Positions 26,690-47,223 of a stretch of DNA of 52,407 bases are shown here, in pieces. The position numbers were made by a program, and so were the translations under genes. The stretch is from a virus: the UHGV virus genome UHGV-0113213. One strand, 5' to 3'. Positions within the stretch are counted from its first letter, which is position 1, and each line of letters opens with the position of its first letter. Under the pieces are notes generated by a model. That model did not search any database, was not told the origin of the DNA, and saw only the letters and a program-made list of their open reading frames with translations.

Positions 26690-26722
26690 CAACAAAGCAA
26701 AAACCCGGCTCGTGGCCGGGTA
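26690..26722 (-). terminator. Rho-independent terminator immediately upstream of holin (tR-prime-like)
   Basis: Stem CCCGGC/GCCGGG followed by long U-run on minus strand, ~15 nt before holin RBS. Confidence 0.65.
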
Positions 26723-28109: not shown

Positions 28110-28148
28110 AATTTCTACTCCGTTTGATGGGGCCATTCTGCCCCGTGT

Positions 28149-28289: not shown

Positions 28290-28298
28290 GGTTCCCCC

Positions 28299-28577: not shown

Positions 28578-28612
28578 TTTTCTACCCTCCGCATCGTTCT
28601 CTCTTCAGCTTC

Positions 28613-28674: not shown

Positions 28675-28675
28675 T

Positions 28676-29135: not shown

Positions 29136-29144
29136 AACACTACC

Positions 29145-30044: not shown

Positions 30045-30048
30045 GATA

Positions 30049-30560: not shown

Positions 30561-30835
30561 TCCTCTGTCTCCCAGCGGTCTATGCTGATTAAAAAGTCCC
30601 GGATAGCGTGTCGCTCGTCGCGCGTCGGTTTACGCTTCCGGTAAATTTTGAAATCGAACCATTCTTTTTCTTGTTCGAAGTCCAGATCGTAAGCAAGCGC
30701 CTCGATATATCCGCAGTCGTGATACTGGTAAGCCACGCCAGCACGAACAAAAAAGCGGGTTTTATCCCGCTTGTGTTCATAGATACACATATTTGCCCCA
30801 CTATGCAGTTGTGTAACTATCAACCAGCTTTTCAT
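30557..30835 (-). CDS. Hypothetical protein (92 aa)
   Basis: ORF in operon. Confidence 0.45.
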   Translation of the reverse strand: MKSWLIVTQLHSGANMCIYEHKRDKTRFFVRAGVAYQYHDCGYIEALAYDLDFEQEKEWFDFKIYRKRKPTRDERHAIRDFLISIDRWETEE

Positions 30836-31031
30836 CCTTCATTCTGGAAAGCTGCATGATATTCATCGTGTAGCCGTTGTCAGAGAAAAGCCACTCCGCA
30901 GCCTTGCGACGAAAAACAATATCATCATGGTTACGTGTCCATGTAGCTATCACAACGCGTTTCCCGTTAGTGGCGAACATAGATAACGCGTTATCAACTA
31001 CGTCGATAGCCTGCCAGATTTTTAGTTCCAT
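30801..31031 (-). CDS. Hypothetical protein (76 aa)
   Basis: ORF in operon. Confidence 0.4.
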   Translation of the reverse strand: MELKIWQAIDVVDNALSMFATNGKRVVIATWTRNHDDIVFRRKAAEWLFSDNGYTMNIMQLSRMKDEKLVDSYTTA

Positions 31032-31387
31032 GATTTATCTCCGTAGATTTTGAATAGTTCACACGCTTCCTGATTTTCAAGTATATTCATATGCAGGTCA
31101 CGCAGGCGGCGCATTGTGCGGAATCGCGGTCTGAACTCCTGGCTACGTTTAATGTATTTGCCGCCAATTGAATAAATATGCCCGTATGCGTACCATCTGT
31201 TGCCTACCCATATATCATATTCTTTTCCTTCGTAATTAAATTTTATAGTTAGCTCGCCTACTTCAACTATTAACCCTTTATCAATGATGTCATTAAGCAT
31301 TTCGTCCCATTCTTTGAGGAATGGTTGCTGATAAAAACCAAAAAGCGTATTTGCAGCATGGCAAAGATAATCAATGATTATTTGCAT
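31022..31387 (-). CDS. Hypothetical protein (121 aa)
   Basis: ORF in operon. Confidence 0.45.
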   Translation of the reverse strand: MQIIIDYLCHAANTLFGFYQQPFLKEWDEMLNDIIDKGLIVEVGELTIKFNYEGKEYDIWVGNRWYAYGHIYSIGGKYIKRSQEFRPRFRTMRRLRDLHMNILENQEACELFKIYGDKSWN

Positions 31388-31391
31388 ATTA

Positions 31392-31628
31392 TCACCACAT
31401 CATGTAATAAACGTTCTCGTCAGCTAATGCGTCCGCTACATCCTGCGTCATGTGCCTGACTTCAAGGAAAAAATCCTCATCATGCCATTCACTAACAAGC
31501 ATACGCGCCCATTTACGGCGGCGGCGCTTATTGTGTCGTAGATCATCAAAAGTCATTAATGCTTTGTCATATGCCCTTACAAGGCGTTTACGGTTACTTT
31601 TCATTGCTCGACCCACCTTAACATCCAA
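31392..31628 (-). CDS. Hypothetical basic protein (78 aa)
   Basis: ORF in operon. Confidence 0.4.
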   Translation of the reverse strand: MDVKVGRAMKSNRKRLVRAYDKALMTFDDLRHNKRRRRKWARMLVSEWHDEDFFLEVRHMTQDVADALADENVYYMMW

Positions 31629-31909
31629 TTCACATCACATTTAATTGCGAATACTCTCACCGGATCAGTGCCGAATAATGGATGTGTGATAGTTTTCACT
31701 TCGTACCCAAAATAAGGAAGGTTAATAATCCTGTGTTTTTCGTGGTTGGCAGGGTATCCCCATTTAATAATCAGGCGCTCATATTCCCGCCCTTCCAGAC
31801 GTTTACGCCAATAGTCATTATAAAGCCGGTATTCCTCCACCTTCTTTCCCGCCCGGATAGCGTGGAAATATTCCCCTTTCAGATTCAAATGCAGGTCTTT
31901 ACTTGCCAT
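31601..31909 (-). CDS. ASCH-domain-like protein (start uncertain)
   Basis: Motif EYFHAIRAGKKVEEYR resembles ASCH/PUA-like G-K-K-x-x-E-x-R signature. Confidence 0.45.
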   Translation of the reverse strand: MASKDLHLNLKGEYFHAIRAGKKVEEYRLYNDYWRKRLEGREYERLIIKWGYPANHEKHRIINLPYFGYEVKTITHPLFGTDPVRVFAIKCDVNWMLRWVEQ

Positions 31910-32081
31910 CGCTATGATCCTGTAAACAGTCGTTATAGCCTTCAATATATCCGGTTAATCCGGTATTACTCACTGACCATTCAGCCGAACGGCGTTTGAT
32001 GGCCTTGTCCATCGTCATTTCATCGCCTGGTCCGCCTGGCTCAATGTATTTTCTTAAATCCCTTACTATCCACGCCATCAA
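31899..32081 (-). CDS. Hypothetical protein (60 aa)
   Basis: ORF in operon. Confidence 0.35.
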   Translation of the reverse strand: MMAWIVRDLRKYIEPGGPGDEMTMDKAIKRRSAEWSVSNTGLTGYIEGYNDCLQDHSDGK

Positions 32082-32156
32082 TGATGCGTATCACTGCACA
32101 CACGCGCCGTTAATGTCAGGTCATTGACCAGCTTTGCAAATAGATGTTCTTTTAAT

Positions 32157-32504
32157 TTAGGCTTCATTGTCGTCACCTTCGAAATACTGCTCAATCGCAC
32201 GTTTGACGTTCATTTCTCGCTGATAATTGTTACCGCTATAGATTGCGGCTGCCGATACGTGATCGATAATTTGCTGTAATAAATAAGGATGAATTTTTAT
32301 TTTTTCATCAAGGACAATGCGAGATGGCTTAGGTGCTGTAGCAATATCATCAACGATTTCTATCTCACCACCTCCGCCGCAGCGAGGACAAACGAATTTA
32401 TCACCTTGATACAGCATGATGCCGCAACCTTTTTCGGTTTTTACGACCATGCCATCGTCGTCGCAGTTTTCGCAATACAGCCACCGAATATTAATTATTT
32501 TCAT
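32157..32504 (-). CDS. Zinc-ribbon protein (CENCDDDG...CPRCGGGG); start uncertain
   Basis: Two CxxC pairs. Confidence 0.4.
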   Translation of the reverse strand: MKIINIRWLYCENCDDDGMVVKTEKGCGIMLYQGDKFVCPRCGGGGEIEIVDDIATAPKPSRIVLDEKIKIHPYLLQQIIDHVSAAAIYSGNNYQREMNVKRAIEQYFEGDDNEA

Positions 32505-32694
32505 TGTCGTTACTCCGTCCGTAAATATGGACAGGCTCAACTGGTACTGCTGGCAATTCGCCATCATTTAACTCGCTCGCCATGCCTAATATTAAACGCG
32601 CTTCAGCACCAGTGACTTTCTTGCACCATGCGTCGCCTGTTTTATCTTCAAATAAGATAACGGCAAACTGATCGTTTATTTCCAGCTTATCCAT
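32491..32694 (-). CDS. Hypothetical acidic protein (67 aa)
   Basis: ATGA overlap with Q stop. Confidence 0.4.
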   Translation of the reverse strand: MDKLEINDQFAVILFEDKTGDAWCKKVTGAEARLILGMASELNDGELPAVPVEPVHIYGRSNDNENN

Positions 32695-33422
32695 TATTCA
32701 CCCCGTGTCACTCGTTTGATTTCGCTTTCCGCGCGAGATTCTTCTTTGAATAGCTCCGCTATGGCGTCTTCATAGAAAACCCTGTATTTCTTCCACCATG
32801 TTGATCTGCTTACCGGGAAAACAAGCTGGTTAACAGCCTGCCGGACGAGATCTACAGGGAAACGCGAGTACCCGCGCCCGCCGCAGTGCTGGCACGTTTT
32901 GAATACTGGCATTTCCGCCGCTTCGCTGGCTGCTTTATCCGGTACTTCGCCACGCCCCTTGCACCTCTGGCAATGGTTTTTAACGTAGCCTTTGCCGTTG
33001 CACCGCGAGCAAACTGTCGATGTGTATTCACAATATGGATTCGGTAAAAGCCCGTTACCTCCGCACTTAGGGCAAACCTTTTCGGTAGCCGCACTTTGGC
33101 AGTAATCCCGAAACGCGAAAACGGCAACAAGAATAATAAGATCATTGCGTTGTTCTTCATTTAATTCCATCACGTATTCGTAATCTTTCGCCATAACCCT
33201 TAAACGCTCTGTAAGCAAAATTACGGCCCTGTGTTTTTCAGCTTGCGATAGCTCCATTTTCCCTAAAAAAGCACTATAGCCAAGCTCTACGCGCGATTGC
33301 GCCATACCAGCGGCGGTAAGCGCATCCGTCGTATTAAGTGCATCCGGGGATGTTCCCCGGCTTTCGTCTGATAATCGCGGTGATTTGGGAAAGTGGAATT
33401 TCAGAATGGATTCTAAATTCAT
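32694..33422 (-). CDS. Q: Late-gene antiterminator Q-like protein (242 aa)
   Basis: N-terminus MNLESILKFHFPKSPRLSD...AAGMAQS...AFLGK and multiple CxxC zinc motifs match my recollection of the Q antitermination family; located after NinG-RusA. Confidence 0.65.
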   Translation of the reverse strand: MNLESILKFHFPKSPRLSDESRGTSPDALNTTDALTAAGMAQSRVELGYSAFLGKMELSQAEKHRAVILLTERLRVMAKDYEYVMELNEEQRNDLIILVAVFAFRDYCQSAATEKVCPKCGGNGLLPNPYCEYTSTVCSRCNGKGYVKNHCQRCKGRGEVPDKAASEAAEMPVFKTCQHCGGRGYSRFPVDLVRQAVNQLVFPVSRSTWWKKYRVFYEDAIAELFKEESRAESEIKRVTRGE

Positions 33423-33604: not shown

Positions 33605-34008
33605 TGCTCACCCCACATATTAGTCGCATATTCGTTAATATCCGGTAGCAGGTCGCCGCGTTCGCATACCTTAATAAACAATCGCCCGCCTTTTACCTTC
33701 CGGCAGCGGACAATTTTTATTGAGTCGATTTGCCCATCATCATTCCAGAATCCGGCACAAGTAAGGCTGTCAAAAAGGCATTTTGGGATATTATCAAGAT
33801 CTCTGACCCGGTTATCCGGCGGCGCGGCATAAATGGCGATTGCCAGTCGGCAAGATAGGTTAATGTCTAAATTTAATAATTCGATGATGTCTTTTACTTG
33901 TTCCCGGTATTCCTTCCCCACTTCGCTGATATAGTGAAAACCTCGTGAATGTCGGTAATATCGGTTATTAGATGGCGGGTAAGGTAGGCTAAATGTATAC
34001 TCGTTCAT
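33601..34008 (-). CDS. rusA: Holliday junction resolvase RusA
   Basis: Motifs LPYPPSNNRYYRH, RDLDN, GFWNDD, VKGGRL match RusA family. Confidence 0.85.
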   Translation of the reverse strand: MNEYTFSLPYPPSNNRYYRHSRGFHYISEVGKEYREQVKDIIELLNLDINLSCRLAIAIYAAPPDNRVRDLDNIPKCLFDSLTCAGFWNDDGQIDSIKIVRCRKVKGGRLFIKVCERGDLLPDINEYATNMWGEQ

Positions 34009-34610
34009 GCTGCCTTTCTCCTTAAGGCGTCCAATTTTGCCTGATAGATGTTTATTAGCTCCTTACATTCTGCGATCGTCCATTTATGCGTATCATTGTT
34101 GTTCTCCAGCGCTTCCACCCTGGCGAGGCCAATTTTTCGAATCAGTGCTGGGCGATAGGCTTGTATGTTTCCGTCTAATGTCTGATTGCAGTGCCTACAT
34201 TGTTTATGGACGTTATCTTCATTGAAGCGAAGGTGTCCGGCGGCGGCGACCGTCCTGTAATGCCCCGCATCGTATCCGCATTGCTCACCGTAGTAAGTCC
34301 CGCAGGATATGCACGGCAACCGCGCGTCACGTTCGCGGATATAGGCATTAAATACCGCTTGTGCCTGCTTTAACCAATAGCTACGCGGATTTAACTGCTT
34401 CCGCTTCCGGTTGCGTTCTTCCCGCTGGCTATCACGGCGTTTCTTCCGTTCCATAGCCTTCATAGCCTTCTCACGGTCGCGGCATAACTGGTCAAATTTC
34501 AGTTCTTCCAGGCATTCGTCGCTGCACCACGTTTGATTGTGATATTTAGGCTCAAAAAAAACGCCGCAGCATTTGCAACGGCGTCTTATTGGTTTCTTAG
34601 GGTTTTGCAT
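34005..34610 (-). CDS. ninG: NinG / Rap recombination protein
   Basis: Start moved to MQNPKKPIRRRCK; motifs RSYWLKQAQ, LPCISCGT, DAGHYRT, LRFNE.N.HKQC as in lambda NinG. Confidence 0.85.
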   Translation of the reverse strand: MQNPKKPIRRRCKCCGVFFEPKYHNQTWCSDECLEELKFDQLCRDREKAMKAMERKKRRDSQREERNRKRKQLNPRSYWLKQAQAVFNAYIRERDARLPCISCGTYYGEQCGYDAGHYRTVAAAGHLRFNEDNVHKQCRHCNQTLDGNIQAYRPALIRKIGLARVEALENNNDTHKWTIAECKELINIYQAKLDALRRKAA

Positions 34611-34624
34611 AAAAACCACCCCAA

Positions 34625-34801
34625 TTATTTTTGATTCTCTGTTTCGTTCAGCCTTTCGGCGTGTCCGGCCCTTAGCGAGTGATCTACACATTCGTTGTAC
34701 TCGTTACATTCTCCTTTTTTCGTGCTGCATACATTGCACATTGCACGCATGACGCTTTCTCGTTCATAGTCGTCATGCCATTGGTAATCATCAAAAGACA
34801 T
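34625..34801 (-). CDS. Small Cys-rich protein (58 aa; CNVCSTKKGECNEYNEC), not in ORF track
   Basis: ATG with AAGGAG RBS; overlaps spurious N-terminal extension of NinG track ORF in another frame. Confidence 0.4.
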   Translation of the reverse strand: MSFDDYQWHDDYERESVMRAMCNVCSTKKGECNEYNECVDHSLRAGHAERLNETENQK

Positions 34802-34825
34802 AATGCTCTCTCCTTTTCAGGTGAT

Positions 34826-34864
34826 TTCTACGCATTTCAGCGCTGCCGGATTTTTAAAGAGCAT
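34826..34864 (-). promoter_or_regulatory. Internal nut-like site: boxA ATGCTCTTTAAAAATCCGG plus hairpin CGCUGAAAUGCG
   Basis: 18-mer identical to the rightward-leader boxA at 43321-43339; same 3-nt spacing to a short GAA-containing hairpin. Confidence 0.45.
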
Positions 34865-34960
34865 TTTGTTTGCTTGAAGTATACAAAATGGATACCCCCA
34901 AACAAGGCAAAAAGCGCCATTATGTGATCCGCATCACGCAATGATGCCATTTTGTAAACT

Positions 34961-35725
34961 TTAGTCCGGTAAAATGCGGTTAAGCGTAGTACGAGTGATG
35001 GCCCGGTCGTTAGCCAGGAATACAGCACGGGCAAAGCCGCGCGGCGTTAGTGAGCGGATCATCTTAGTGCGTTTCGACTCTCCTCCTAACTTCGCGTGCT
35101 GTTTGCTGTCTTCCCATTCATCCGGCATAGGTACAGGCCGGAATAGCGGCTGCTTAAATCCATTCCCGCACCAGATACAAGTTTTCTTCGTGTATGCGTC
35201 GCGGGCAGCTATGTATTCAGGGAAAGCAGGGTGTTTGTCGTCTTCAGGCAGGTAGCCACCGTAAGCGCACGGGTTGAAGATAAAATCAGGTTTGCGCCAT
35301 AACGTTGACAGCGCACCTACCGGATTTTCCACCATCCACGGGACGTGGTACATATCAGCAAGCGTTTCTACCAGTTTTGCGTTGTATACCGCCTTCTGCT
35401 GGAAGTAAGGTTCTTTTTTCCGCTTATCAGCAAACCAGCGAGCGCCGGACACCGCAAGATCGTCGCACGGAGGAAAGCCCAGGATAATGTCAGGATCTGG
35501 ATAAACAGACAATTCAGGGGAGAACATTACCAGGAAATGGCTGTCAATCCATACGTTGATATACTCAATGTTCGGATGAATGATTTTGACGCCTTCATAA
35601 TCGCCGTGATTAGCGCCATCATAGTTGAAGCAATAGCATTTATAACCAGCGTCGGCCCAATCTTTAACGGCGTATCCGCTGCCGTCGTACAGCGACCACA
35701 CCACCCAATTTCTAAGCCCACTCAT
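34961..35725 (-). CDS. C5-cytosine DNA methyltransferase-like protein (divergent, 254 aa)
   Basis: Motif I-like LYDGSGYA, catalytic PC-like GFPPCDDLAVSG, ENV-like ENPVGA. Confidence 0.5.
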   Translation of the reverse strand: MSGLRNWVVWSLYDGSGYAVKDWADAGYKCYCFNYDGANHGDYEGVKIIHPNIEYINVWIDSHFLVMFSPELSVYPDPDIILGFPPCDDLAVSGARWFADKRKKEPYFQQKAVYNAKLVETLADMYHVPWMVENPVGALSTLWRKPDFIFNPCAYGGYLPEDDKHPAFPEYIAARDAYTKKTCIWCGNGFKQPLFRPVPMPDEWEDSKQHAKLGGESKRTKMIRSLTPRGFARAVFLANDRAITRTTLNRILPD

Positions 35726-36225
35726 TTCCTACCCTCGAACGTAAAGTAGCGGCGCATGATGATAGTGATCACCGTTACCGCCGCCATTTTTGAGATGAAT
35801 TGCATAGCTGATATTTCCGGCATGAATGCCATAAACGATAGCGTTGGGAAAATTAACGCATCGCCAATGGCGGACGCTATATTTGCAGGCCAGCGTTTAG
35901 AATCGAAATCACCAGGTAAAACCCGGTAAACGCCGCCAGAAATAAGCGCACCGGAAACAACCGCGACGAATGACGCGATCGCCACCATTCCGGCGTCGTA
36001 ATTTATCAGCACCGTGATTGCGCCAGCGGCGGCGCATGTTGTAGCCGACCATTTAAGGCCGCCGTCATATAACAGAAAATCACGAATCATCATATTGACA
36101 CACACGGCGGCTACCGTGGTGATCGGAATTACCCACGGGCCACAGTGGTTAACAATAAGATTGATGATAACGAAAACGGCGACATAAACGCAGGCTAATA
36201 ACCTGTCAATTGCCACCATCTTCAT
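35722..36225 (-). CDS. Integral membrane protein (167 aa, 4-5 TM helices); weak resemblance to YhhQ/VUT transporter family
   Basis: Hydrophobic profile by eye; family assignment tentative. Confidence 0.45.
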   Translation of the reverse strand: MKMVAIDRLLACVYVAVFVIINLIVNHCGPWVIPITTVAAVCVNMMIRDFLLYDGGLKWSATTCAAAGAITVLINYDAGMVAIASFVAVVSGALISGGVYRVLPGDFDSKRWPANIASAIGDALIFPTLSFMAFMPEISAMQFISKMAAVTVITIIMRRYFTFEGRK

Positions 36226-36400
36226 TTAGCTCTTCCTCCCGATACGCTAATATCTGTTCGGCCTTAAGCGCGTTATAAGCAATAAGGTCTATAAGAGTGT
36301 CGAGCGGATCAGTTCCATTAGCGAGAATAGCCCCTAAACGCGCTTCCTTGAGGCAAATCATTAGATCCCATACATCAAGTGGGGTTAAATTCGCATTCAT
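36206..36400 (-). CDS. Hypothetical protein (64 aa)
   Basis: ORF in operon. Confidence 0.35.
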   Translation of the reverse strand: MNANLTPLDVWDLMICLKEARLGAILANGTDPLDTLIDLIAYNALKAEQILAYREEELNEDGGN

Positions 36401-36517
36401 CTTAGCGTTGAAAATAGCCGCTATTTTTGGCGCTGATTTTTCTTCTTTTCGATCGTATCCGTTTTGCTCCCTCTTGCCTCGATAGTTTCAGCCGCAAGTC
36501 TCAGCAATTCAGCCGCT

Positions 36518-37057
36518 TTATTCATTTTCTGCACCTCTTGCATATAGCTCTTTACGTGTTATCTGCGTGAAAATACATTCATGTCTGCATCGTGGATGCC
36601 AGATCAGGAACAAGCTCCCCTTATTGTTCCCGCTTACTGGTTTCCCTGTTGCAGCATTGATAAACGCCAGCCGCCCGCGCGTGATTAATCGGCATTCGTT
36701 TGCCGTCTCCACGCCGTTCATAAACCAGCTAACAGAAATGTCAGCGGGCAATAACATTACGCATCCGATATGATTTCGGCTGTGTTCAAGCGCCGCTTTA
36801 TCAACGAATGGCCCCGGATTAGAATATGGCGGATTCATCCAGACATACTCACCAGGCATCGCCACCGCTCCCCACGGATAATGGAGCGTGTCCATTTCTT
36901 CGGTTATATATCGCGGTATTAATGCGTTTGCCTTGTTTGCCGCCACATCCGCGACGAACTCGAATTCTCGATCCATTCCTCTAAAAACGGGTTTTGGCGT
37001 TTGCCATAAGTCCTTTATTTCTTTCGGCGTATGGCTGCCGCCGTAATCATTTTTCAT
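36518..37057 (-). CDS. Phage-type DNA N6-adenine methyltransferase
   Basis: Motif WMNPPYS (NPPY catalytic motif), size ~180 aa typical of phage Dam family. Confidence 0.75.
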   Translation of the reverse strand: MKNDYGGSHTPKEIKDLWQTPKPVFRGMDREFEFVADVAANKANALIPRYITEEMDTLHYPWGAVAMPGEYVWMNPPYSNPGPFVDKAALEHSRNHIGCVMLLPADISVSWFMNGVETANECRLITRGRLAFINAATGKPVSGNNKGSLFLIWHPRCRHECIFTQITRKELYARGAENE

Positions 37058-37066
37058 TACGCCCCC

Positions 37067-37555
37067 TTAGAAATAATCCTGATCTGTTCCCCAGCGGTTA
37101 TTCAGATACCCCACCAACCACACAAAACGCTCAATACTGATTAGCGGGGCGACCTTGCGATAATGCTTATCTAATATCAGCCGCGTGGCTTTATCGCTGT
37201 AGCCGTTCTTCTCTACCTCCGCTTTGCAGGCCGAAAGCGCGGCGCGGGCGGCAGTCTTTACGGCGTTAAATTGCGGCTCTGACATATTGAATAAGGCCAT
37301 AGGATCACCATGTGTCAGTCCAATCCGGCGCGGCAGTCCAGCAAAAACCAATGAATGCGCTAACAGCCAATAAAGCGCGGGCTGCAAAAAGAATATTCCC
37401 AATGTCGTTAAATTCAGGAAGCGACCACGTAATAAACATAGCCCCAGCATAATAACACCGATAACAGTCATGGCCGCCAGGAAAACAAAAAGCGTAGCCA
37501 AAAGCCACGCCCCCAACCAGTTAAAAAAGCTCTTAAGCATTTTAAACGTCCTCAA
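37067..37555 (-). CDS. Membrane protein (162 aa, N-terminal TM helices)
   Basis: ORF in operon; hydrophobic N-terminal half. Confidence 0.45.
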   Translation of the reverse strand: MRTFKMLKSFFNWLGAWLLATLFVFLAAMTVIGVIMLGLCLLRGRFLNLTTLGIFFLQPALYWLLAHSLVFAGLPRRIGLTHGDPMALFNMSEPQFNAVKTAARAALSACKAEVEKNGYSDKATRLILDKHYRKVAPLISIERFVWLVGYLNNRWGTDQDYF

Positions 37556-37745
37556 TTACCCCGCCTTTCACACGCTCTTTAATATCCCATACGTGAGGCT
37601 TGCATATTTCCTGATAATAGTGATCCGGCCTGCTGCCGAAATACCATTTGCCATCCATATAAAAATAAACGCCAGAATAATTTCCTGGCGCTGCCTTTGT
37701 TGCTGCTTCTGGAATTTTCCATTCCATGTAATGTTTAAATTTCAT
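37542..37745 (-). CDS. Hypothetical protein (67 aa)
   Basis: ORF in operon. Confidence 0.4.
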   Translation of the reverse strand: MKFKHYMEWKIPEAATKAAPGNYSGVYFYMDGKWYFGSRPDHYYQEICKPHVWDIKERVKGGVIEDV

Positions 37746-37929
37746 GAGTTTTTAAATAACCCCTTCTGAATGCTTTGATGTAAAGTCCTAGCCTTCTTAT
37801 ATGCTGAACGCCATCAATGATGCGCACTAAATAAATTGCACCGTTTGTGTCAGATACAAAATGACAGCCAAAACCAATACCAACCAACTTCAGGTTGTCA
37901 GGTATTCTATAATCAGTTTTCTGTTCCAT
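37735..37929 (-). CDS. Hypothetical protein (64 aa)
   Basis: ORF in operon. Confidence 0.4.
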   Translation of the reverse strand: MEQKTDYRIPDNLKLVGIGFGCHFVSDTNGAIYLVRIIDGVQHIRRLGLYIKAFRRGYLKTHEI

Positions 37930-37932
37930 GCC

Positions 37933-38025
37933 TCACCTCATATGGTATTCAATAAACCACCTGATAAACAGACATAAGGCAATAAAACCCCAGCAACAGC
38001 ACATATAAAACAATGTGTCGTCCAT
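37933..38025 (-). CDS. Mini-gene, 30-aa hydrophobic peptide MDDTLFYMCCCWGFIALCLFIRWFIEYHMR
   Basis: ATG 2 nt after upstream stop, GAGG RBS; next gene starts 3 nt after its stop. Confidence 0.4.
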   Translation of the reverse strand: MDDTLFYMCCCWGFIALCLFIRWFIEYHMR

Positions 38026-38027
38026 AA

Positions 38028-38246
38028 TTAAGCCTCAATAACACCGTAATCGAACGTGCCTAAATACCGTTCGATACTTACAACCTCAATACCATCAATG
38101 CACCGTTTCCACACAGACACCTGGCTTTCATTTTCTCTGAAGTGCATATTAGAAAGCACTTCATCGGCTGGGTAGCCTTTCCCGGCGACGTAGGCATCGT
38201 GACCTACGCCACCTTCTACGCAATAAAGCATCAATTCGCGTTCCAT
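38028..38246 (-). CDS. Hypothetical protein (72 aa; start at MERELML)
   Basis: GGAGGAAACAAG RBS before internal ATG. Confidence 0.4.
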   Translation of the reverse strand: MERELMLYCVEGGVGHDAYVAGKGYPADEVLSNMHFRENESQVSVWKRCIDGIEVVSIERYLGTFDYGVIEA

Positions 38247-38344
38247 CTTGTTTCCTCCGTGCCGTAAACCTCTTAATTTCAGTTTACAAAACGGATATGC
38301 GATCGCAATACAAAATGTATATTTATGTGATCGCAATCACGCTG

Positions 38345-38965
38345 TTAATGCAGTACACGTTTTTCCTGTTCATGAATAGGCTGTGCACTTTTCATTGCTT
38401 CGTTAAGCGTAGCTATAGCCGCCTGTACGCCGAATTCATTAGCGCGCATATCATCGCCAACAAATTTTCCGTAAAGCACCGGAATAAACGCCTTAACGTT
38501 CACTTCTTCGTGTCCTTCCTCAATAAATTTCTGCAACATCTTAACCTCAAAGACCTTTTTCATCAGGCCGCGCATAGAATGCAGTGAAACACTGCCAAGC
38601 AGATCCTTGTTCAACGGGAAAATAACAGCACTTCCGAACGCGAGCGGATCAACATCTTCCGGCACTGGTGCGCGTCCGAATTCCTCCTCCATGCGTCTTA
38701 CGAAAGTGAGGCAGAACACATAACGCGCTACCGATGTTTTTTCTTCCATGCTTAAAGACACGTAATCGCGGATTGATGCATTCATCATAATATCGACAAT
38801 CTGTAGCGCCAGATTTAAGTCACTGTCATACACTCCTGCTTCCATATCTTTTAAAACTTCGTGATAATCCTTAGTTACCACTTCGTGAAAGCTCGCGTCC
38901 TCTGTGTAGCGAGTAATTAACATGCCTTCGCTGCCGAGTGAATAAGCCGTTTTGATATTGTTCAT
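38345..38965 (-). CDS. Hypothetical protein (~206 aa)
   Basis: Start moved to MNNIKTAYS with AAGGG RBS. Confidence 0.45.
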   Translation of the reverse strand: MNNIKTAYSLGSEGMLITRYTEDASFHEVVTKDYHEVLKDMEAGVYDSDLNLALQIVDIMMNASIRDYVSLSMEEKTSVARYVFCLTFVRRMEEEFGRAPVPEDVDPLAFGSAVIFPLNKDLLGSVSLHSMRGLMKKVFEVKMLQKFIEEGHEEVNVKAFIPVLYGKFVGDDMRANEFGVQAAIATLNEAMKSAQPIHEQEKRVLH

Positions 38966-38976
38966 AATATTTACCC

Positions 38977-39309
38977 TTATAGTGGATGATGCCATTTCAT
39001 TTCAGTTTCTGAATTAAACGGGTTTCCTTCGCTTGAAAGGAATAAATCACGCTCCCGTTTCAGTTCTTCCGGGCTTATTTCTATTTCATCAATCTGACCG
39101 AACGATCCAGGCATCATCCGTTTTAAATCGGATAGCGGACGCATAAGGCCGCAGCCACGTAACAGCATGTCTATAGCGAATTGTCTACGCCCTGCTGCAT
39201 CATTAAAGCGACGCGCCCACGGGACACACACAATCCGGCGTTCGAACTCAATAAATAGTGATAGCTTGTTAGTCTGACTATCATAGGCCTTATGTAATTT
39301 AATTTTCAT
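38977..39309 (-). CDS. Hypothetical protein (110 aa)
   Basis: ORF in operon. Confidence 0.45.
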   Translation of the reverse strand: MKIKLHKAYDSQTNKLSLFIEFERRIVCVPWARRFNDAAGRRQFAIDMLLRGCGLMRPLSDLKRMMPGSFGQIDEIEISPEELKRERDLFLSSEGNPFNSETEMKWHHPL

Positions 39310-39490
39310 TTAACACCTCAACATATTGTTCAAGATGCCATCTCCCCACCTCATCATCTTCCTCATCAAATAATATTACTTGACCACCAGGCAAAAAAGA
39401 AAAGGCAGCTATAATAAACTCATAGCCATACCAAGTGCGGATCTTCTCACCGCCTTTCAGGTGTTTTACTTTCACTAATTTTATAGCCAT
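39299..39490 (-). CDS. Hypothetical protein (63 aa)
   Basis: ORF in operon. Confidence 0.4.
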   Translation of the reverse strand: MAIKLVKVKHLKGGEKIRTWYGYEFIIAAFSFLPGGQVILFDEEDDEVGRWHLEQYVEVLNEN

Positions 39491-39753
39491 ACGCCGTACA
39501 TCCCATTCAGCCCGGCAAACAATTTCCGCCAGTGGTCTTCAACATAATCCCGGAACGGCTTAACGCGAACATTGCGGGCCTTCAGTTCAATCTTGTCAAA
39601 GAAACGAGGCTCAATAATCGTTCCATCCAGATATTTAACCAGGATCGGGCGCTCAAGATCGTTATATGTCTTGTTCAGCACAACCAGACCAGGGTCGCTA
39701 CGATATTCTGGCAAAACAACAAGATCGCCATCTTTTGCATTCCAAGTAACCAT
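39481..39753 (-). CDS. Hypothetical protein (~90 aa)
   Basis: ATG overlaps upstream mini-gene stop (TGATG). Confidence 0.45.
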   Translation of the reverse strand: MVTWNAKDGDLVVLPEYRSDPGLVVLNKTYNDLERPILVKYLDGTIIEPRFFDKIELKARNVRVKPFRDYVEDHWRKLFAGLNGMYGVWL

Positions 39754-39872
39754 CACATCGCCCCTTTACAAATAAAGCTAATCACCGCAGCAAGTGCGCC
39801 GCAAAACACAATCGTAAACAGGAAACAAATAACGCAAAAAGCGACCCTTACAATATTCTTGCAAACCTTCAT
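39753..39872 (-). CDS. Mini-gene, 39-aa Cys-rich membrane peptide MKVCKNIVRVAFCVICFLFTIVFCGALAAVISFICKGAM
   Basis: ATG 3 nt after upstream mini-gene stop. Confidence 0.4.
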   Translation of the reverse strand: MKVCKNIVRVAFCVICFLFTIVFCGALAAVISFICKGAM

Positions 39873-39875
39873 AAC

Positions 39876-39995
39876 TCACCCCAACAATGCAACAATTAAT
39901 TCAGCAATAAAAACGGCGACATAAAAAGAAGCTGTGATATAAATCACCCCAATAACGAAGGCGGCGGCTAATGCCGCAATTTTTACCATGCTCAT
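39876..39995 (-). CDS. Mini-gene, 39-aa membrane peptide MSMVKIAALAAAFVIGVIYITASFYVAVFIAELIVALLG
   Basis: ATGA overlap with upstream gene stop. Confidence 0.4.
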   Translation of the reverse strand: MSMVKIAALAAAFVIGVIYITASFYVAVFIAELIVALLG

Positions 39996-40231
39996 TTATC
40001 AGCCTCCGCAATGAACTTATCAAGCCATTTGTTATTGGCCAGGCGTTCGGCATCTTCGCCAAATGTTTTACGTTCGCTTAATTCCTTGCGCGTTGGTATA
40101 GGCCATTTATCGTGCCACCCGGCAGACGTTTCGAACTCATACAGGCCGCCGTTAAAAGTGACATAGTCATCAGATGAGTCAGGCAGCTCTTTATCAACAT
40201 CTTTTTCTTCGATCATGATTTGATACCTCAT
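39992..40231 (-). CDS. Hypothetical acidic protein (79 aa)
   Basis: ORF in operon. Confidence 0.45.
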   Translation of the reverse strand: MRYQIMIEEKDVDKELPDSSDDYVTFNGGLYEFETSAGWHDKWPIPTRKELSERKTFGEDAERLANNKWLDKFIAEADK

Positions 40232-40509
40232 TAATCGTTAATAACCTGGCCCATACGCCCGCGATATTTGCGCATACGTGGATCGACATATTCAGGCCAG
40301 TGCATATCCGGTTTTCTTTGCAGCGGATAAAAACTTGCCTGCCAGTTGTCGAACCATATTTGTTTTGCGTACAGGTCACTAAATCTTTTCGCCATCCGTT
40401 CCGCTGCCGTGCCGCATAAAAAAAGCCCGCGATCGATTTGATCACGGGCTTCTTTTAATACTTGCTCTTTTGTTCGTGGCGGTGGTGGCGGTTTTAGATA
40501 ATCAACCAT
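40231..40509 (-). CDS. Hypothetical protein (92 aa, poly-Pro near N-terminus)
   Basis: ORF in operon. Confidence 0.45.
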   Translation of the reverse strand: MVDYLKPPPPPRTKEQVLKEARDQIDRGLFLCGTAAERMAKRFSDLYAKQIWFDNWQASFYPLQRKPDMHWPEYVDPRMRKYRGRMGQVIND

Positions 40510-40524
40510 CGCTAACCTATTGGA

Positions 40525-40929
40525 TCAAAACGGGATATCGTCATCAAAGTCCATCGGCGGATTATTCCCGTTATTATTCTGCTGCTGCGGAGGCGCTTTC
40601 TGCTGCTGGCCTTGTTGGTTAACGTTCATGAATTCAAATTCGTTAACCGCCACTTCTACCGCCGTTCCCTTCGTGCCGTCGTTCCGGTCATATTGCCGAA
40701 CATCCAGGCGACCGCTTACCACTATTTTTCCACCCTTGCGGATATGTGGCGCTAATTTTTCCGCACGCTCACCAAATACCAGGCAAGTGACCCACATTGT
40801 CCGCTTATTATCGCCGTAGCCATTCGTTACAGCTAACGGAAAACTACCAATCGCTTTCCCGTTTTGTGTGTAGCGAACCTCCATATCATTACCGATATTC
40901 CCGCCCAGCGTGATTGAATTTAAACTCAT
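40525..40929 (-). CDS. ssb: Single-stranded DNA-binding protein
   Basis: OB-fold-like N-terminal region, Gln/Asn/Pro-rich linker, acidic C-terminal tail DFDDDIPF. Confidence 0.85.
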   Translation of the reverse strand: MSLNSITLGGNIGNDMEVRYTQNGKAIGSFPLAVTNGYGDNKRTMWVTCLVFGERAEKLAPHIRKGGKIVVSGRLDVRQYDRNDGTKGTAVEVAVNEFEFMNVNQQGQQQKAPPQQQNNNGNNPPMDFDDDIPF

Positions 40930-41573
40930 TAACCCATCTCCCCGTTAAGCTCTGCTACCCGGATGTCATAAACATCTTTTGCCTTGATTCGATGTTCCGA
41001 TCCTTCCGGTAGTAATTTCCAGCATTTGCCAAATATTTCACGCAGCTTGTTAGCGTCCTGCGCTTTCGCTGCTGCATCACAGAAACGTGCTAATACTTCA
41101 TCAGGATTTGGCGGCGCTTTCTGCTGCTGTGGTTGTTGTTTTGGTGGGTTTTTCTGCTGGCGAGGCTGCTGGCCTGTCTGCTTAGCGTATGCGTCAGTAT
41201 CAGGATCTCGCGCATCATCAATGCAGAATAAACCGTTCAAAGCGTATTTTCGCGCGTAACTTGATGTCGCACCTGTTAGCTGGCTTGCGTCCATTCCCTT
41301 CTTGCTTTCTTCTTCCCTGGCGTAAGCCGTTACCGCTATTTCGTCTTCACCGTCGCTTAGCGTCGCCGTAGCTTTCACATAATAGCGATTGCCGATCAGG
41401 ACAATTTCATCGCTTACAGTCAGCGTAATACTTTGAAGCAGTGGTTTAACCGCCTCTAAAATATCCTCCGCCGACCTGTAATTATATCCACCAAAATTAT
41501 TACGCTGATTTTTCGGCGCGTTCAGCGTTTGCTGAATCGTCCATAGCTTTTTATGTAACTCTGTTTTCACCAT
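40929..41573 (-). CDS. erf: ERF-family single-strand annealing protein
   Basis: N-terminal motifs NFGGYNYRSAEDILEAVKPLL typical of Erf; Gln/Pro-rich C-terminus; adjacent to SSB. Confidence 0.7.
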   Translation of the reverse strand: MVKTELHKKLWTIQQTLNAPKNQRNNFGGYNYRSAEDILEAVKPLLQSITLTVSDEIVLIGNRYYVKATATLSDGEDEIAVTAYAREEESKKGMDASQLTGATSSYARKYALNGLFCIDDARDPDTDAYAKQTGQQPRQQKNPPKQQPQQQKAPPNPDEVLARFCDAAAKAQDANKLREIFGKCWKLLPEGSEHRIKAKDVYDIRVAELNGEMG

Positions 41574-41689
41574 TTAATCTCCCGTGCTGTTAACACTATG
41601 TATAAGGCTTTATTCGCGGCGCTCCACATTTCGGCATCGTGAAGCATTTCCGCTACTGCCAGTTTGAATTGAAGCGCCTGAATAACCAT
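41567..41689 (-). CDS. Small protein (40 aa), not in ORF track
   Basis: GGAG RBS; stop overlaps Erf start (ATGGTGA). Confidence 0.4.
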   Translation of the reverse strand: MVIQALQFKLAVAEMLHDAEMWSAANKALYIVLTAREIKW

Positions 41690-41719
41690 AATGTCATCTC
41701 CGGATGTTTACATTTTGTA

Positions 41720-42010
41720 TTAATGGTAGCGGACTTTATCCAGGGGTTTTTCCCCTAAATGGCGTGGTTGCGTTGCGTGGTAGTAGCTGCCGCTTTCATT
41801 TTCCGTATACCATTTTACTGATCCTTTGCGACGTTCTTTAATGCTATTTGGTTTGCATCTTTCCTCGTTTGCAAATCGAATAGCTTTATCCACATTGTCT
41901 GTTTTATTGATTGCAGGTGATGATTTTCTTTCGTTTTCTCTTTTTATCCTTCTGCGTTCCCTGGCATTCATTTTGCTATCACATTTACCATATATAATTG
42001 TAACGCTCAT
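41720..42010 (-). CDS. N: N-like antitermination protein (arginine-rich motif MNARERRRIKRENERK)
   Basis: First gene of leftward operon downstream of pL/nutL; ARM resembles lambda/P22 N; true start may be internal ATG at 41971. Confidence 0.55.
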   Translation of the reverse strand: MSVTIIYGKCDSKMNARERRRIKRENERKSSPAINKTDNVDKAIRFANEERCKPNSIKERRKGSVKWYTENESGSYYHATQPRHLGEKPLDKVRYH

Positions 42011-42066
42011 AATCTGATCTCCGTATATCCTTGATGATACTTAATAAAAAATCATCTTCGTTAATT

Positions 42067-42104
42067 GCCGCACTTCCAGCGGCTGACCAGATTGTTAATG
42101 AGCG
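42067..42104 (-). promoter_or_regulatory. nutL-like site: boxA CGCTCATTAACAATCTGG plus boxB-like hairpin GCCGC-UGGAAGU-GCGGC
   Basis: boxA resembles CGCTCTTA/TGCTCTTTAACAA consensus; 5-bp stem with GAA-containing loop; located between pL and N. Confidence 0.45.
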
Positions 42105-42358
42105 GCTTAACATCTTTCAACTAATCCCGCAATCATCGCCGTTCCCGGCGTGACCTTGCTCACTCCAAGCAAGCTGACTCGTCGCCTTGCGTGCGGTTTC
42201 GTGGGGGATGTAACGCTTTAAACACCCCATGCGCCTTGTTATCAGTGCCGCTTTCGGTCCCCCATCGGGGAGTTACTCCACGGTTGACAAGGTGTTAAGC
42301 CTGATTTTTAAAGTGCCAGGAAGTTGCTTTTGTTACCTGCGCCCTTCCTTTGACTCGC

Positions 42359-42387
42359 AATATACGCCCCGTAAAACATCGAGTCAA
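42359..42387 (-). promoter_or_regulatory. Candidate pL: -35 TTGACT (42382-42387), 17-bp spacer, -10 TATATT (42359-42364), with TACAAAATGGA element immediately upstream
   Basis: Read on minus strand. Confidence 0.45.
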
Positions 42388-42481
42388 TCCATTTTGTATA
42401 CTTTTTTAAAATATTTTATATGCCATTGATATTTAAATAATAAATAACGTTTTCTGTTTACGTTTTGGTGTTTTCCAGGCA

Positions 42482-42510
42482 AAGAAAAGCCGCCATTCGG
42501 CGGCTAATGT
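42482..42510. terminator. Hairpin GCCGCC-ATTC-GGCGGC after cI (U-run on minus strand; weaker on plus)
   Basis: Stem flanked by A-run/T-rich run directly after cI stop. Confidence 0.55.
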
Positions 42511-43158
42511 TTATGGCAGGTTTACGATCTTCGCATCAACCACCACGCCTATAATTTTTGATTCTGGATTCATAGGGATTGGCGGATACAGCGGATTGAG
42601 CGAACGTAAAAGCCTTTGACCTCCATCAATAATCAACTGTTTAAACGTCGGTATCTGCCCTTCCTCAAGCTGGGCTATAACCAGTTTGCCGTCAATAGCT
42701 GGCGCGTGCGGGTCCACAAGTATCATCGTCCCCGCCGGGATGCTCAACCCCTGCGGCGCGTTCATTGATTCACCTTTGGCAACCAGCCAGTAACTGTCAT
42801 CTGAACAAATAACGCTAGTCGTAACGTGTCGTAATGCTGAACGCCTTGCGTCATCCATATTGTTTACTGTGTCCTTCCAGTCAATAACCGGGTAACTACC
42901 TAAATCACGCGGCGGCACGGCCTGAAGTGTATTAGAAACAGAATCATCAATGACCATGCCATCATGTGTAACAGTAAACTGCCGACGACCAAGCTCGCGC
43001 ATAATCCGCGCAATATCTTCAAGATTTGGCTCTCGGCGACCGTTCAGCCAGTGTGACAGGCCGCCTTTAGTTATCCCCATACGATCCGCGAGTGAATCCT
43101 GGCTCATGCCCTGCGCCCGCATGAGCTGCTTTGCTAAGTCATACCATTTTGTTTTCAT
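42511..43158 (-). CDS. cI: CI-like repressor (HTH_XRE plus S24 LexA-type peptidase domain)
   Basis: N-terminal HTH (MSQDSLADRMGITKGGLSHWLNGRR), C-terminal autocleavage-type domain with Ser (GESM) and Lys (KQL) region. Confidence 0.85.
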   Translation of the reverse strand: MKTKWYDLAKQLMRAQGMSQDSLADRMGITKGGLSHWLNGRREPNLEDIARIMRELGRRQFTVTHDGMVIDDSVSNTLQAVPPRDLGSYPVIDWKDTVNNMDDARRSALRHVTTSVICSDDSYWLVAKGESMNAPQGLSIPAGTMILVDPHAPAIDGKLVIAQLEEGQIPTFKQLIIDGGQRLLRSLNPLYPPIPMNPESKIIGVVVDAKIVNLP

Positions 43159-43185
43159 GTCGCTACCCTATAACCTCAAAAAGTT

Positions 43186-43285
43186 TGATGCAAGTCACAA
43201 AACGTGTATTTTAAGCCTTGATCTTAAAATTCCATTTTGTAAACTTGCAGACAAGGTAAGGCCATACTTGCAAAGACGCAAGGAA
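43186..43285. promoter_or_regulatory. Immunity-region operator/promoter segment: inverted repeats CTTGCAGACAAG (43244-43255) and CTTGCAAAGACGCAAG (43267-43282) plus TACAAAATGG element (43232-43244)
   Basis: Palindromes read directly; exact operator boundaries not resolved. Confidence 0.4.
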
Positions 43286-43320
43286 AAAGATAACGGAAGG
43301 CACAAAAAGGCACTTACCTT

Positions 43321-43356
43321 ATGCTCTTTAAAAATCCGGTGTCGCTGCGAAGCGAA
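43321..43356 (+). promoter_or_regulatory. nutR-like site: boxA ATGCTCTTTAAAAATCCGG plus short hairpin CGCUGCGAAGCG
   Basis: boxA close to rrn-type TGCTCTTTAACAA; in leader of rightward operon. Confidence 0.45.
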
Positions 43357-43463
43357 AAACAAATATCACGCAACGGCGGGATCTGTTGAGCGGTCAGTCA
43401 CTGCTATCTAATGCTAATGGGATGCCCGCCCGCGCGTTCACTCTAACCATAGGAGAAAATGCG

Positions 43464-43730
43464 ATGAGTATAAACATGATTAGTAAAGCATGGAACGTAA
43501 AACTTAATAGCCCGATTCAAAAACTTGTCTTAATGGCTCTGGCTGAAAAGGCAGATAACAAAGGACGGGTACATGATGCATCACGCAAAGAAGTAGCCGC
43601 AATGTGTGAACTTCCTGTTCATACGGTACATGATGCCTTCGCCGCGTTAATGGATAAAGGATTTGTTTGTCGTCTTGATGCATTCAGTGATGTCTATGTA
43701 GTGATGTTGCCGGGGGGGGATGATCTATGA
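43464..43730 (+). CDS. Winged-HTH protein (HTH_36-like), first gene of rightward operon; replication-initiator N-terminal module or Cro analogue
   Basis: AGGAG RBS; segment SPIQKLVLMALAEKADNKGRVHDASRKEVAAMCELPVHTVHDAFAALMDKGFV. Confidence 0.55.
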   Translation: MSINMISKAWNVKLNSPIQKLVLMALAEKADNKGRVHDASRKEVAAMCELPVHTVHDAFAALMDKGFVCRLDAFSDVYVVMLPGGDDL

Positions 43731-46104: not shown

Positions 46105-47223
46105 ATGTCACAAAGAAAGATAAGCGATGAGCAATTGATCGCTGAATATAACAACGGTTTAACGTACAAGCAGATCGCTGAAAAATATGGCATGTCAAAA
46201 CGCAACGTCGAGCGCCTGGGCGCAAAGCTGGCGAAACGCGGTTTAATATCCACGCGTCGCGCGCCGGGTTTTGGCGTCAATGGCGAGTCATTGCTAGTTG
46301 ATAAGGATGGCAATGTGATTATGCGCTGGATTAAAACAGCCCGTGATCGCGATGAAATGGAAAGGCTAATGCAAGCGGCTTGCGATGCTTTCACGGAAGA
46401 CATGCCACGCGCTGAGGCTGTGCCAGTGCCGGAAATTGATTTCCAAAAAAGCCTGGCTCTTTATCCGGTATTCGATCTGCATATCGGTGCGCTTGCGCAT
46501 AAAGCTGAATGCGGTGAGAGCTACGACACCGGGATCGCCGAACGTGTGTTAAATGACTTCTTCGACTACGCGGTGGGCGCTGCGCCAATGTCTGAAAAGG
46601 CTGTTTTGTTGTTAGGAGGTGATATTCTTCACACTGACGGCCTGTTACCAGTGACGCCATCAAGCAATCACGTCCTGGATTGCGATTCACGCTACGCAAA
46701 ACTGGTTTACGTGGCGATCCGGTCGGTCCGGCGTGCGGTCGGGAAGATGTTACTAAATCATAAGTATGTCGAGATCCAGACATTATCCGGTAATCACGAC
46801 CAATCAGGGATGATCTGGCTACGTGCGGCGCTGGCGGCTTTTTACGAAGATGAACCGCGCGTAACTGTTGATGTGTCCCCTGCTATCGTTCACCACACAC
46901 AGTACGGCAAAACATTCCTTGCTTACCACCACGGACACACCATCAAAAAACCAGAAAATTTGTTGTCTGCCTGCGTCTCTGACTGGCGGGAGGATTTCGG
47001 CAAGTCGTCGGCGGTTTACGCTCATTGCGGACACTGGCATCACCAACGGCTGATTGAATCATCGTTAGGCGTTGTTGAGTATCACGGCACGTTAGCTGGC
47101 AAAGACGCTTATTCAACAAATGGCGGCTGGCGGTCGCGTCGGCTGGCTGCGGTAATAATTTACAGTCCTGATCATGGGGAAATCGGGCGCTTTGTTTATT
47201 ACCCTGAATATTCCATTTTGTAA
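46105..47223 (+). CDS. HTH-fused calcineurin-like metallophosphoesterase (372 aa)
   Basis: N-terminal HTH (LTYKQIAEKYGMSKRNVERL); phosphoesterase motifs DLHIG, GGDILHTDG, GNHD, GHWHH. Confidence 0.55.
   Translation: MSQRKISDEQLIAEYNNGLTYKQIAEKYGMSKRNVERLGAKLAKRGLISTRRAPGFGVNGESLLVDKDGNVIMRWIKTARDRDEMERLMQAACDAFTEDMPRAEAVPVPEIDFQKSLALYPVFDLHIGALAHKAECGESYDTGIAERVLNDFFDYAVGAAPMSEKAVLLLGGDILHTDGLLPVTPSSNHVLDCDSRYAKLVYVAIRSVRRAVGKMLLNHKYVEIQTLSGNHDQSGMIWLRAALAAFYEDEPRVTVDVSPAIVHHTQYGKTFLAYHHGHTIKKPENLLSACVSDWREDFGKSSAVYAHCGHWHHQRLIESSLGVVEYHGTLAGKDAYSTNGGWRSRRLAAVIIYSPDHGEIGRFVYYPEYSIL

Follow-up and report, generated by a model that had tools for sequence, protein, structure and literature searches.

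The closest described relatives of the control system treated here are the N-dependent antitermination systems of temperate phages. In lambda, the N protein is small and basic with an N-terminal arginine-rich motif (ARM), and the leader of each of the two divergent early operons carries one nut site: a boxA and, separated from it by a short spacer, a boxB hairpin whose loop is GNRA-like and rich in A. P22 likewise has two nut sites, served by gp24 (N). The boxA of the Escherichia coli rrn operons, in contrast, needs neither a phage protein nor a boxB. A system with three nut sites has been described for the coliphage mEp021, in which an N-lambda-like protein, Gp17, brings about early antitermination and acts on nutR1, nutR2 and nutL (PMC11893012, Front Microbiol 2025). 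Here we describe the counterpart of this system in the virus genome UHGV-0113213, a stretch of 52,407 nucleotides (nt) that we refer to as the window, where a gene for a Gp17-like ARM protein is accompanied by three nut-like sites.

In mEp021, nutL adjoins the repressor gene, nutR1 lies upstream of gp17, and nutR2 lies downstream of a cytosine methyltransferase gene; antitermination needs Gp17 and its arginines, whose conservation is complete at positions 17, 19, 20 and 24 and nearly complete for R21 (PMC11893012). The same paper describes the mEp phages as Nus-dependent, lists the terminators t1, t2 and t5 as demonstrated and t3 and t4 as predicted, and credits the experiments to Valencia-Toxqui et al. 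2023, Arch Virol 168:92.

We put the probability that the three sites and the ARM protein of the window are the already known Gp17/nutL-nutR1-nutR2 system of the mEpimmI phages at roughly 0.9. Within the window, this identification is based on sequence identity with mEp021, synteny, and conservation and covariation of the sites, while the molecular contacts between ARM and boxB and between boxA and NusB/E are presumed by analogy with the N proteins of lambda and P22. The system was published between 2023 and 2025 and was rediscovered here from raw sequence; the value of the result lies in a correct annotation of the prophage, with an N-like antiterminator, three nut sites and the terminators t1 to t5. 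The mEp021 group is a non-lambdoid lineage, reportedly as common in human faeces as the lambdoid phages; its antitermination is of the N type and employs an additional nut site.

The Gp17-like protein and its three nut sites

Judged by nucleotide similarity, gene order and its Rep021-type repressor, the window belongs, as a prophage or phage, to the temperate coliphages of the mEp021 (mEpimmI) group. Positions 34000-43600 match seven coliphage isolates (mEp010, mEp021, mEp515, mEp554, mEp044, mEp013 and MagusPhagus) at 85-91% identity over 86-98% of the length; the six mEp phages show 94-98% coverage and 85-87% identity, and MagusPhagus 91% identity. The window shares its gene order with the mEp021 record MH706966, in which a CI-type repressor gene is flanked on one side by the replication operon and on the other, on one strand, by gp17, erf, ssb, methyltransferase genes, ninF, ninG, a resolvase gene, Q, and the lysis and terminase genes. 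Pfam and PHROG scans of the window agree in identifying the repressor (HTH_3 plus Peptidase_S24), NinG, a Q-like antiterminator, a DNA methyltransferase and replication initiators. In complete E. coli genomes, the nutR2 region is found as a single chromosomal copy in 32 of 5,426.

The product of the gp17-like gene is identical to mEp021 Gp17 at 89 of 96 residues by direct comparison (92.7% by tblastn) and is 100% identical to a MagusPhagus protein annotated 'anti-termination protein N-like'. Its ARM occupies residues 14-29, encoded at 41924-41971, and contains all five of the conserved arginines R17, R19, R20, R21 and R24. Residues 1-95 match PHROG 271, 'anti-termination protein N-like', at 1.3e-13, and the N proteins of P22 (6.9e-40) and lambda (4.1e-23) match the same family, through which the window protein belongs to the N family in sequence. 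An alignment with P22 N covers the first 20 residues (MSVTIIYGKCDSKMNARERR versus MTV-ITYGKSTFAGNAKTRR; 10/20 identical in pairwise BLASTP, E = 0.017), whereas the rest of the protein does not align. With lambda N, the small size, the basic character and the N-terminal ARM are shared, but no pairwise, Pfam or PDB sequence similarity is detectable. The window protein is best described, on these comparisons, as a remote N-family member that probably works like N, with three nut sites instead of two.

The three sites (Table 1) lie beside the repressor gene, upstream of the gp17-like gene and downstream of the cytosine methyltransferase gene. The same 18-mer, TGCTCTTTAAAAATCCGG, serves as boxA of both nutL and nutR2; searched with up to three mismatches, it has three matches in the window against 0.07 expected, and none of 100 shuffles reaches three. 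Of the 13 positions of its core TGCTCTTTAAAAA, 12 agree with the boxA of rrn, TGCTCTTTAACAA. In nutL, a 2-nt spacer (UG) is followed by the boxB UCGCU-GCGA-AGCGA at 43342-43355. In nutR1, a 3-nt spacer (UCA) precedes GCCGC-UGGAAGU-GCGGC at 42067-42083 on the minus strand, and the gp17-like start codon lies 57 nt downstream of the site. The boxB of nutR2 reads (C)A-GCGC-UGAAAU-GCGU-A(G) at 34828-34845, also on the minus strand. At the syntenic positions of mEp021, nutR1 and nutR2 are identical to those of the window and nutL differs by 1 nt (AGCTC versus TGCTC). Since the mEp021 sequence at the published positions is thus identical or 1 nt different, we equate the window sites with nutL, nutR1 and nutR2; the '+' direction of the window is the published 'left', so that the left/right naming is inverted here.

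Compared with mEp021, the window differs at the strain level only: its nutL boxA begins with T instead of A, its t2 has diverged, and between its Q and t5 lie about 4 kb of additional DNA. The flanking CI-type repressor, cytosine methyltransferase, ninF/ninG and Q genes are the same, t1 to t5 can all be mapped, and Gp17 is 93-100% identical. The distance to lambda is larger, although the architecture of the individual nut site, the presence of one such site in both divergent early leaders, the requirement for host Nus factors (as described in the mEp phage literature) and membership in PHROG 271 are common to both. The window has three nut sites in place of two; its N-like gene, nin genes and Q lie on the same strand and run in one direction; its boxA resembles the rrn consensus far more than does the lambda boxA CGCTCTTA; and its boxB loops are of the tetraloop type (GCGA, U-GAAA-U) whereas those of lambda are the pentaloops GAAAA and GAAGA. 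P22 and the window share the boxA GCTCTTTAA and a boxB 5' arm (G)CGCUG leading into an A-rich loop; the window boxA GCTCTTTAA together with the boxB arm CGCUG resembles the P22 nutL sequence CGCTCTTTAAC...GCGCUGACAAAGCGC. The P22 loop is, however, a pentaloop (GACAA), and P22 has two sites.

A sequence-only reading of the window had proposed three nut-like sites at these positions, an N-like ARM protein, an internal boxA 18-mer identical to the rightward one and a boxA close to that of rrn, and all of these proposals hold. Its description of a GAA-loop hairpin 3 nt after each boxA needs some adjustment, as the hairpins are real features of the sites but start at 2-3 nt and have loops that are not uniform, being either GAA-containing or GNRA-type tetraloops. 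The internal site does lie upstream of ninG (Pfam NinG, E = 1e-66), as had been stated, but the gene directly downstream is a 58-residue ninF-like open reading frame (ORF) at 34625-34801, with ninG next. That reading had been puzzled by a nut site within the leftward operon. In the mEp021 group, one strand carries both the N-like gene and the nin-Q region, which explains the puzzle, and because the arrangement has already been described for mEp021, it is no longer unexpected.

By analogy with the N proteins of lambda and P22, Gp17 would be a small N-type protein whose ARM binds the boxB hairpin of the nascent nut RNA, while boxA would recruit host NusB/NusE. NusA and NusG, together with the boxA-NusB/NusE complex, would then convert the RNA polymerase into a termination-resistant form. 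The nutL-type site would modify polymerase entering the operon of the replication genes, and the nutR1-type site would do the same for polymerase on its way into the gp17/recombination operon with its terminators t2, t3 and t4. The nutR2-type site lies 7.2 kb further along the same strand, just past t4, where it could load or reload Gp17 on polymerase ahead of ninF-ninG-rusA-Q and the terminators beyond. The 2023 experiments on mEp021 reportedly used plasmids combining nut sites, terminators and GFP, arginine mutants of the ARM and a gp17 deletion phage, and polymerase is said to read through to nutR2, several kilobases downstream of nutR1.

Conservation and covariation of the nut sites

For comparison we used 43 IMG/VR contigs encoding Gp17 relatives (69-100% identity) and mEp021, giving a set of 44 genomes. 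The relative positions, order and orientation of all three sites are kept wherever the contig reaches, a departure from the two-site arrangement of the lambda and P22 N type that is conserved across the set. nutR1 is present in 44/44 genomes, with the most variable boxA of the three (CGCTCATTAACAA, TGCTCTTTAACAA, TGCTCTTTAATAA and CATTCTTTAACAA), a variability also noted in PMC11893012. nutL is found in all 41 relatives that reach its position, and the variants of its boxB loop, GCGA, GUGA and (U)GCAA(U), are all GNRA tetraloops. nutR2 occurs in every relative that reaches its position, including one in which Gp17 is only 69% identical, and is retained also where the upstream gene differs. Its boxB loop, UGAAAU, is invariant, and in the stem both partners vary at pairs 21-34 (GU/AU/CG/GC) and 23-32 (GC/AU); in the nutR2-type stem, 91% of cells are paired, against 16-53% in controls with slid partners. 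The sites of the relatives thus have a boxA, a short spacer and a boxB in which the stem is maintained and the loop is A-rich or GNRA-like.

These patterns bear on two other explanations. The boxA elements might act as rrn-type antiterminators that depend on Nus factors only and not on the ARM protein, the adjacent hairpins being incidental; the near-identity of their core to the rrn boxA would fit such a role, and one relative (L044) even has the exact rrn sequence. Against this explanation, the loops stay invariant or within the GNRA class while the stems covary, each boxA is joined by a conserved boxB and a dedicated ARM protein, and in mEp021 antitermination is reported to require both Gp17 and its arginines (PMC11893012). 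We consider it very improbable. Even less credible is a chance match at the internal site, or a site left without function after duplication or recombination. Being paralogous to the cassette of nutL (see below), the nutR2 cassette did arise by duplication, but an exact 18-mer is not expected by chance when even three mismatches give an expectation of 0.07, every covering relative retains the site, with compensatory changes in the stem, the 69%-identical Gp17 genome and those with a different upstream gene included, and nutR2 is reported to be functional in mEp021 (PMC11893012).

Several results weigh against the identification of these elements as an N-type system. The ARM protein has no match in Pfam and no sequence relative among solved structures in a PDB search, so that its homology with lambda or P22 N must be remote. 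When a covariation score was compared with a first shuffle control, 13 of 500 shuffles reached the observed value, and because the relatives are closely related, the covariation amounts to a handful of independent events and not to strong statistics. The folding energies of the three nut hairpins are no better than those of shuffled sequences (z = -0.25 to -0.6); since folding energy gives no support, the case for the hairpins rests on conservation, covariation and the literature. In further searches, a scan of GTDB representative genomes for Gp17 relatives gave 129 pattern matches, none of which was confirmed, and tblastn against phage records found the seven mEp-group phages and no more distant relatives that could serve stronger covariation tests. 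In Rfam scans, no family reached its gathering score over the whole window, and permissive thresholds applied to 34500-43700 returned chance-level matches only, apart from one to the Thr_leader terminator half; none of the known RNA family models, nut and put included, matched.

The gp17 leader varies in length. An insertion of about 213 nt (42105-42317, minus strand) is missing from about 10 relatives (L021, L029, L034-L038 and L042-L044). It starts right after a fourth, degenerate boxA-like sequence, GGCACTTTAAAAATCAGG (42300-42317), which sits where boxA lies in the short-leader relatives. The insertion is flanked by the inverted repeats GGCTTAAC and GTTAAGCC, folds as a closed multi-branch domain (z = -1.8) and holds the 37-residue gp16 ORF of mEp021.

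A predicted terminator and a promoter-like cassette next to nutR2

The sequence-only reading had placed a candidate internal promoter at 34915-34958. This segment is instead the t4 hairpin with its T-run, as judged from the mapping of TERM_4 of mEp021, an alignment of 35 distinct relatives and the predicted fold, and the TTTACA taken for a -35 box is part of the A-tract arm of t4. In the alignment, t4 appears as a long inverted repeat with a hypervariable centre of 4-5 nt, an A-tract upstream and a U-run downstream; its folding energy is -19.5 kcal/mol for the window sequence and, for that of mEp021, -23.8 kcal/mol (z = -4.5). A CRP-like palindrome at 34923-34938 lies inside it. A better promoter-like element is found at 34878-34905, between t4 and nutR2, where it would start transcription at about 34871, 8 nt before boxA. 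Among the same 35 relatives, the block CTTGTT-(6-7 hypervariable nt)-TATCCATTTTGTATACTTCAA between t4 and nutR2 is nearly invariant outside its hypervariable part.

The nutR2 cassette, about 150 nt long, is paralogous to the cassette of putative early promoter and nutL, both consisting of a CRP-like palindrome, 31-32 nt, the motif TCCATTTTGTAWACTT, boxA and boxB. Over the 47 nt upstream of the shared motif, the two align with a score of 3, against -9.9 +/- 3.4 for shuffled sequences, of which 1 in 5000 reaches the observed score. This paralogy comes from global alignment with shuffle controls; strict local alignment recovered the 16-nt motif only. The nutL cassette has a -35 box TTGATC (43218-43223) and, after a 16-nt spacer, a -10 box TAAACT (43240-43245), and a consensus scan from the repressor start to nutL gave no better sigma-70 match. 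The composite of palindrome, 26-36 nt and motif occurs three times in the window against 0 expected, each copy aimed at downstream genes, and the pattern is kept in the relatives. The palindromes of the cassettes fit the CRP core TGTGA-N6-TCACA at 9-10 of 10 positions, and their centres lie some 60 nt upstream from the inferred start, as in class I geometry.

A strong terminator-like hairpin follows about 270 nt downstream of nutR2, within the first 20 codons of ninG. It folds with -18.7 kcal/mol (z = -4.7), is invariant in 44/44 relatives save for a synonymous A/G in the loop, and is without annotation in mEp021. We infer that it is a candidate target of the complexes loaded at nutR2.

Because its cassette is paralogous to a promoter/nutL cassette, nutR2 may serve a promoter of its own and not only polymerase reading through from nutR1. 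It could then belong, as nut site, to a third early transcription unit, which would have its promoter just past t4, derive from a duplicated nutL cassette and depend on Gp17 for its transcripts to pass the ninG hairpin and reach Q. The extended alignment from palindrome to boxB, its excess over shuffled sequences and the conserved composite pattern all agree with such a unit, as do the promoter-like pattern of invariant CTTGTT and TATCCATTTTGTATACTTCAA around hypervariable nucleotides, the succession of terminator, promoter-like element and nut site, which is the order expected at a transcription-unit boundary, the standing of the nutL copy as the best promoter candidate of the replication operon, and the invariant hairpin with its U8 downstream. 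However, the nutR2 hexamers are weak (8/12 matches, with only TTG of the -35 box) and do not reach the threshold that was set for the consensus scan, the motif could bind a protein and not be a promoter, a lysogen would be endangered by a promoter placed upstream of Q without repression, where no repressor operators were found, and polymerase in mEp021 is reported to read through to nutR2 from upstream. On balance we lean against a third unit while regarding it as a real possibility. It is compatible with the identification as the Gp17 system, from which it differs only in the origin of the polymerase that uses nutR2.

If there is such a unit, the third nut site would gate Q expression from it, and cassette paralogy, local promoter and ninG terminator could together explain why a third site is needed. 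A fuller version, which is tentative and in our view rather unlikely, would have t4 close the gp17 operon and the duplicated cassette of CRP-like palindrome and TCCATTTTG-TAWACT restart transcription 8 nt before nutR2, with Gp17 needed to pass the ninG hairpin before Q and with the repeated motifs listed below (16 plus 9 sites) forming a phage-wide regulon under CRP or a phage factor. No description of a regulon of this kind was found in the literature accessible to the analysis. The cassette paralogy and the possible nutR2 promoter likewise go beyond that literature and are offered as modest leads. For the Gp17 system itself, the proposal that an N-like protein acts through three nut sites, the third internal and ahead of the nin-Q region, agrees with what is published for mEp021, while the third site, in place of reinforcing read-through or in addition to it, may serve a promoter of its own.

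Further features of the window

Table 1. Positions of the Gp17-like gene, the nut sites and associated elements in the window.
Feature	Coordinates	Strand	Details
gp17-like gene, predicted 96-residue N-type antiterminator	41720..42010	-	ORF translation; ARM MNARERRRIKRENERK
nutL (mEp021 name), replication-operon leader	43322..43355	+	boxA TGCTCTTTAAAAATCCGG 43322-43339
nutR1 (mEp021 name), upstream of gp17-like gene	42067..42104	-	boxA CGCTCATTAACAATCTGG 42087-42104
nutR2 (mEp021 name), between cytosine methyltransferase gene and ninF/ninG	34828..34863	-	boxA TGCTCTTTAAAAATCCGG 34846-34863
CI-type repressor gene, ortholog of Rep021	42511..43158	-	HTH_3 + Peptidase_S24; between the two early leaders
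Q-like late antiterminator gene	32694..33422	-	Pfam Antiterm 1.7e-31, PHROG 127 3.7e-79; downstream of nutR2
sigma-70 promoter of gp17 operon	42359..42387	-	TTGACT, 17 nt, TATATT; 10/12 matches; conserved in mEp021
t1, downstream of repressor gene	42488..42505	-	mapped from mEp021
t2-equivalent hairpin, between nutR1 and nutR2	~39961..39977	-	diverged from mEp021
t3-equivalent, between nutR1 and nutR2	37668..37692	-	mapped from mEp021
t4 (mEp021 TERM_4)	34908..34954	-	~18-bp hairpin; mEp021 annotation and alignment of 35 distinct relatives
t5-equivalent, upstream of lysis genes	~26698..26721	-	mapped from mEp021
Terminator-like GC-rich hairpin followed by U8, in ninG	34554..34588	-	within first 20 codons; nutR2 lies ~270 nt upstream
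Promoter-like element between t4 and nutR2	34878..34905	-	-35 TTGTTT 34900-34905; 16-nt spacer ending TCCATTTTG; -10 TATACT 34878-34883
nutR2 cassette	34878..34938	-	palindrome CGTGAT-GCGG-ATCACA; gap 31 nt; motif TCCATTTTGTATACTT; motif to boxA 14 nt
nutL cassette, putative early promoter of nutL operon	43184..43245	+	palindrome TTTGAT-GCAA-GTCACA 43184-43199; gap 32 nt; motif TCCATTTTGTAAACTT; motif to boxA 76 nt
Cassette copy without nut site	38281..38341	-	directly precedes gene with ATG at 38245
CRP-like palindromes	590-605, 7523-7538, 28659-28674, 31685-31700, 34923-34938, 38326-38341, 39933-39948, 43184-43199, 46618-46633		at most 1 mismatch
CCATTTTGTAWA sites (examples)	615, 7608, 9132, 9201, 9592, 12180, 12208, 28644, 34880, 34947, 38283, 42389, 43232, 46073, 47213		at most 1 mismatch

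Including the copy that lacks a nut site, three cassettes are built alike (Table 1), with a TGTGAT-N4-ATCACA-like palindrome, 31-32 nt, and TCC(A/G)TTTTGTAWACTT, and with a -35 box TTGnnn, a 16-nt spacer and a -10 box TAWACT. CRP-like palindromes with at most one mismatch number nine in the window against 1.4 expected, and fall into two geometries, some being centred about 60 nt upstream of the inferred start (34923, 38326 and 43184) and others lying directly over it (590, 7523 and 28659). They may be served by host CRP or by a phage regulator. The absence of TGTGAT-N4-ATCACA from the gp17 promoter region argues to some extent against reading it as the operator of Rep.

The 12-mer CCATTTTGTAWA, again with at most one mismatch, has 16 sites in the window against 1.06 expected. 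Its copies are mostly intergenic, most are aimed at the start of a downstream gene, and some form inverted pairs 16 nt apart (12180/12208, and near 28615/28644). The motif, which is not described in the mEpimmI paper (PMC11893012), could be a phage-specific promoter element or the binding site of a regulator. Reading it as an extended -10 element was rejected, as the TG is one position off.

Around the gp17 promoter, an inverted repeat of 8 nt, TTGACTCG...CGAGTCAA (42350-42387), with arms 22 nt apart, brackets the region from -35 to +1 and is a possible operator; repressor operators of the mEpimmI group are not described in PMC11893012. On the other side of the repressor gene, between it and the nutL-side promoter, lies a 27-nt imperfect inverted repeat (43189-43249, 70% complementary, centred at 43219), which gives the divergent control region a rough two-fold symmetry.

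A further strong stem-loop that resembles a terminator, GAAGCCCG...CGGGCUUUUUUU, is found at 40416-40479 on the minus strand and is not one of the published t1 to t5. It lies just downstream of the ssb-like gene, overlaps the start of an ORF at 40231-40509, and is the segment that Thr_leader matched in part (28.8 bits, short of the gathering score).

The interval that separates the Q-like gene and the t5-equivalent (about 26700-32690) measures about 6 kb, as against about 2 kb in mEp021, so that the window has about 4 kb of extra small genes in it. An additional strong terminator lies in this interval at 30753-30772 on the minus strand.

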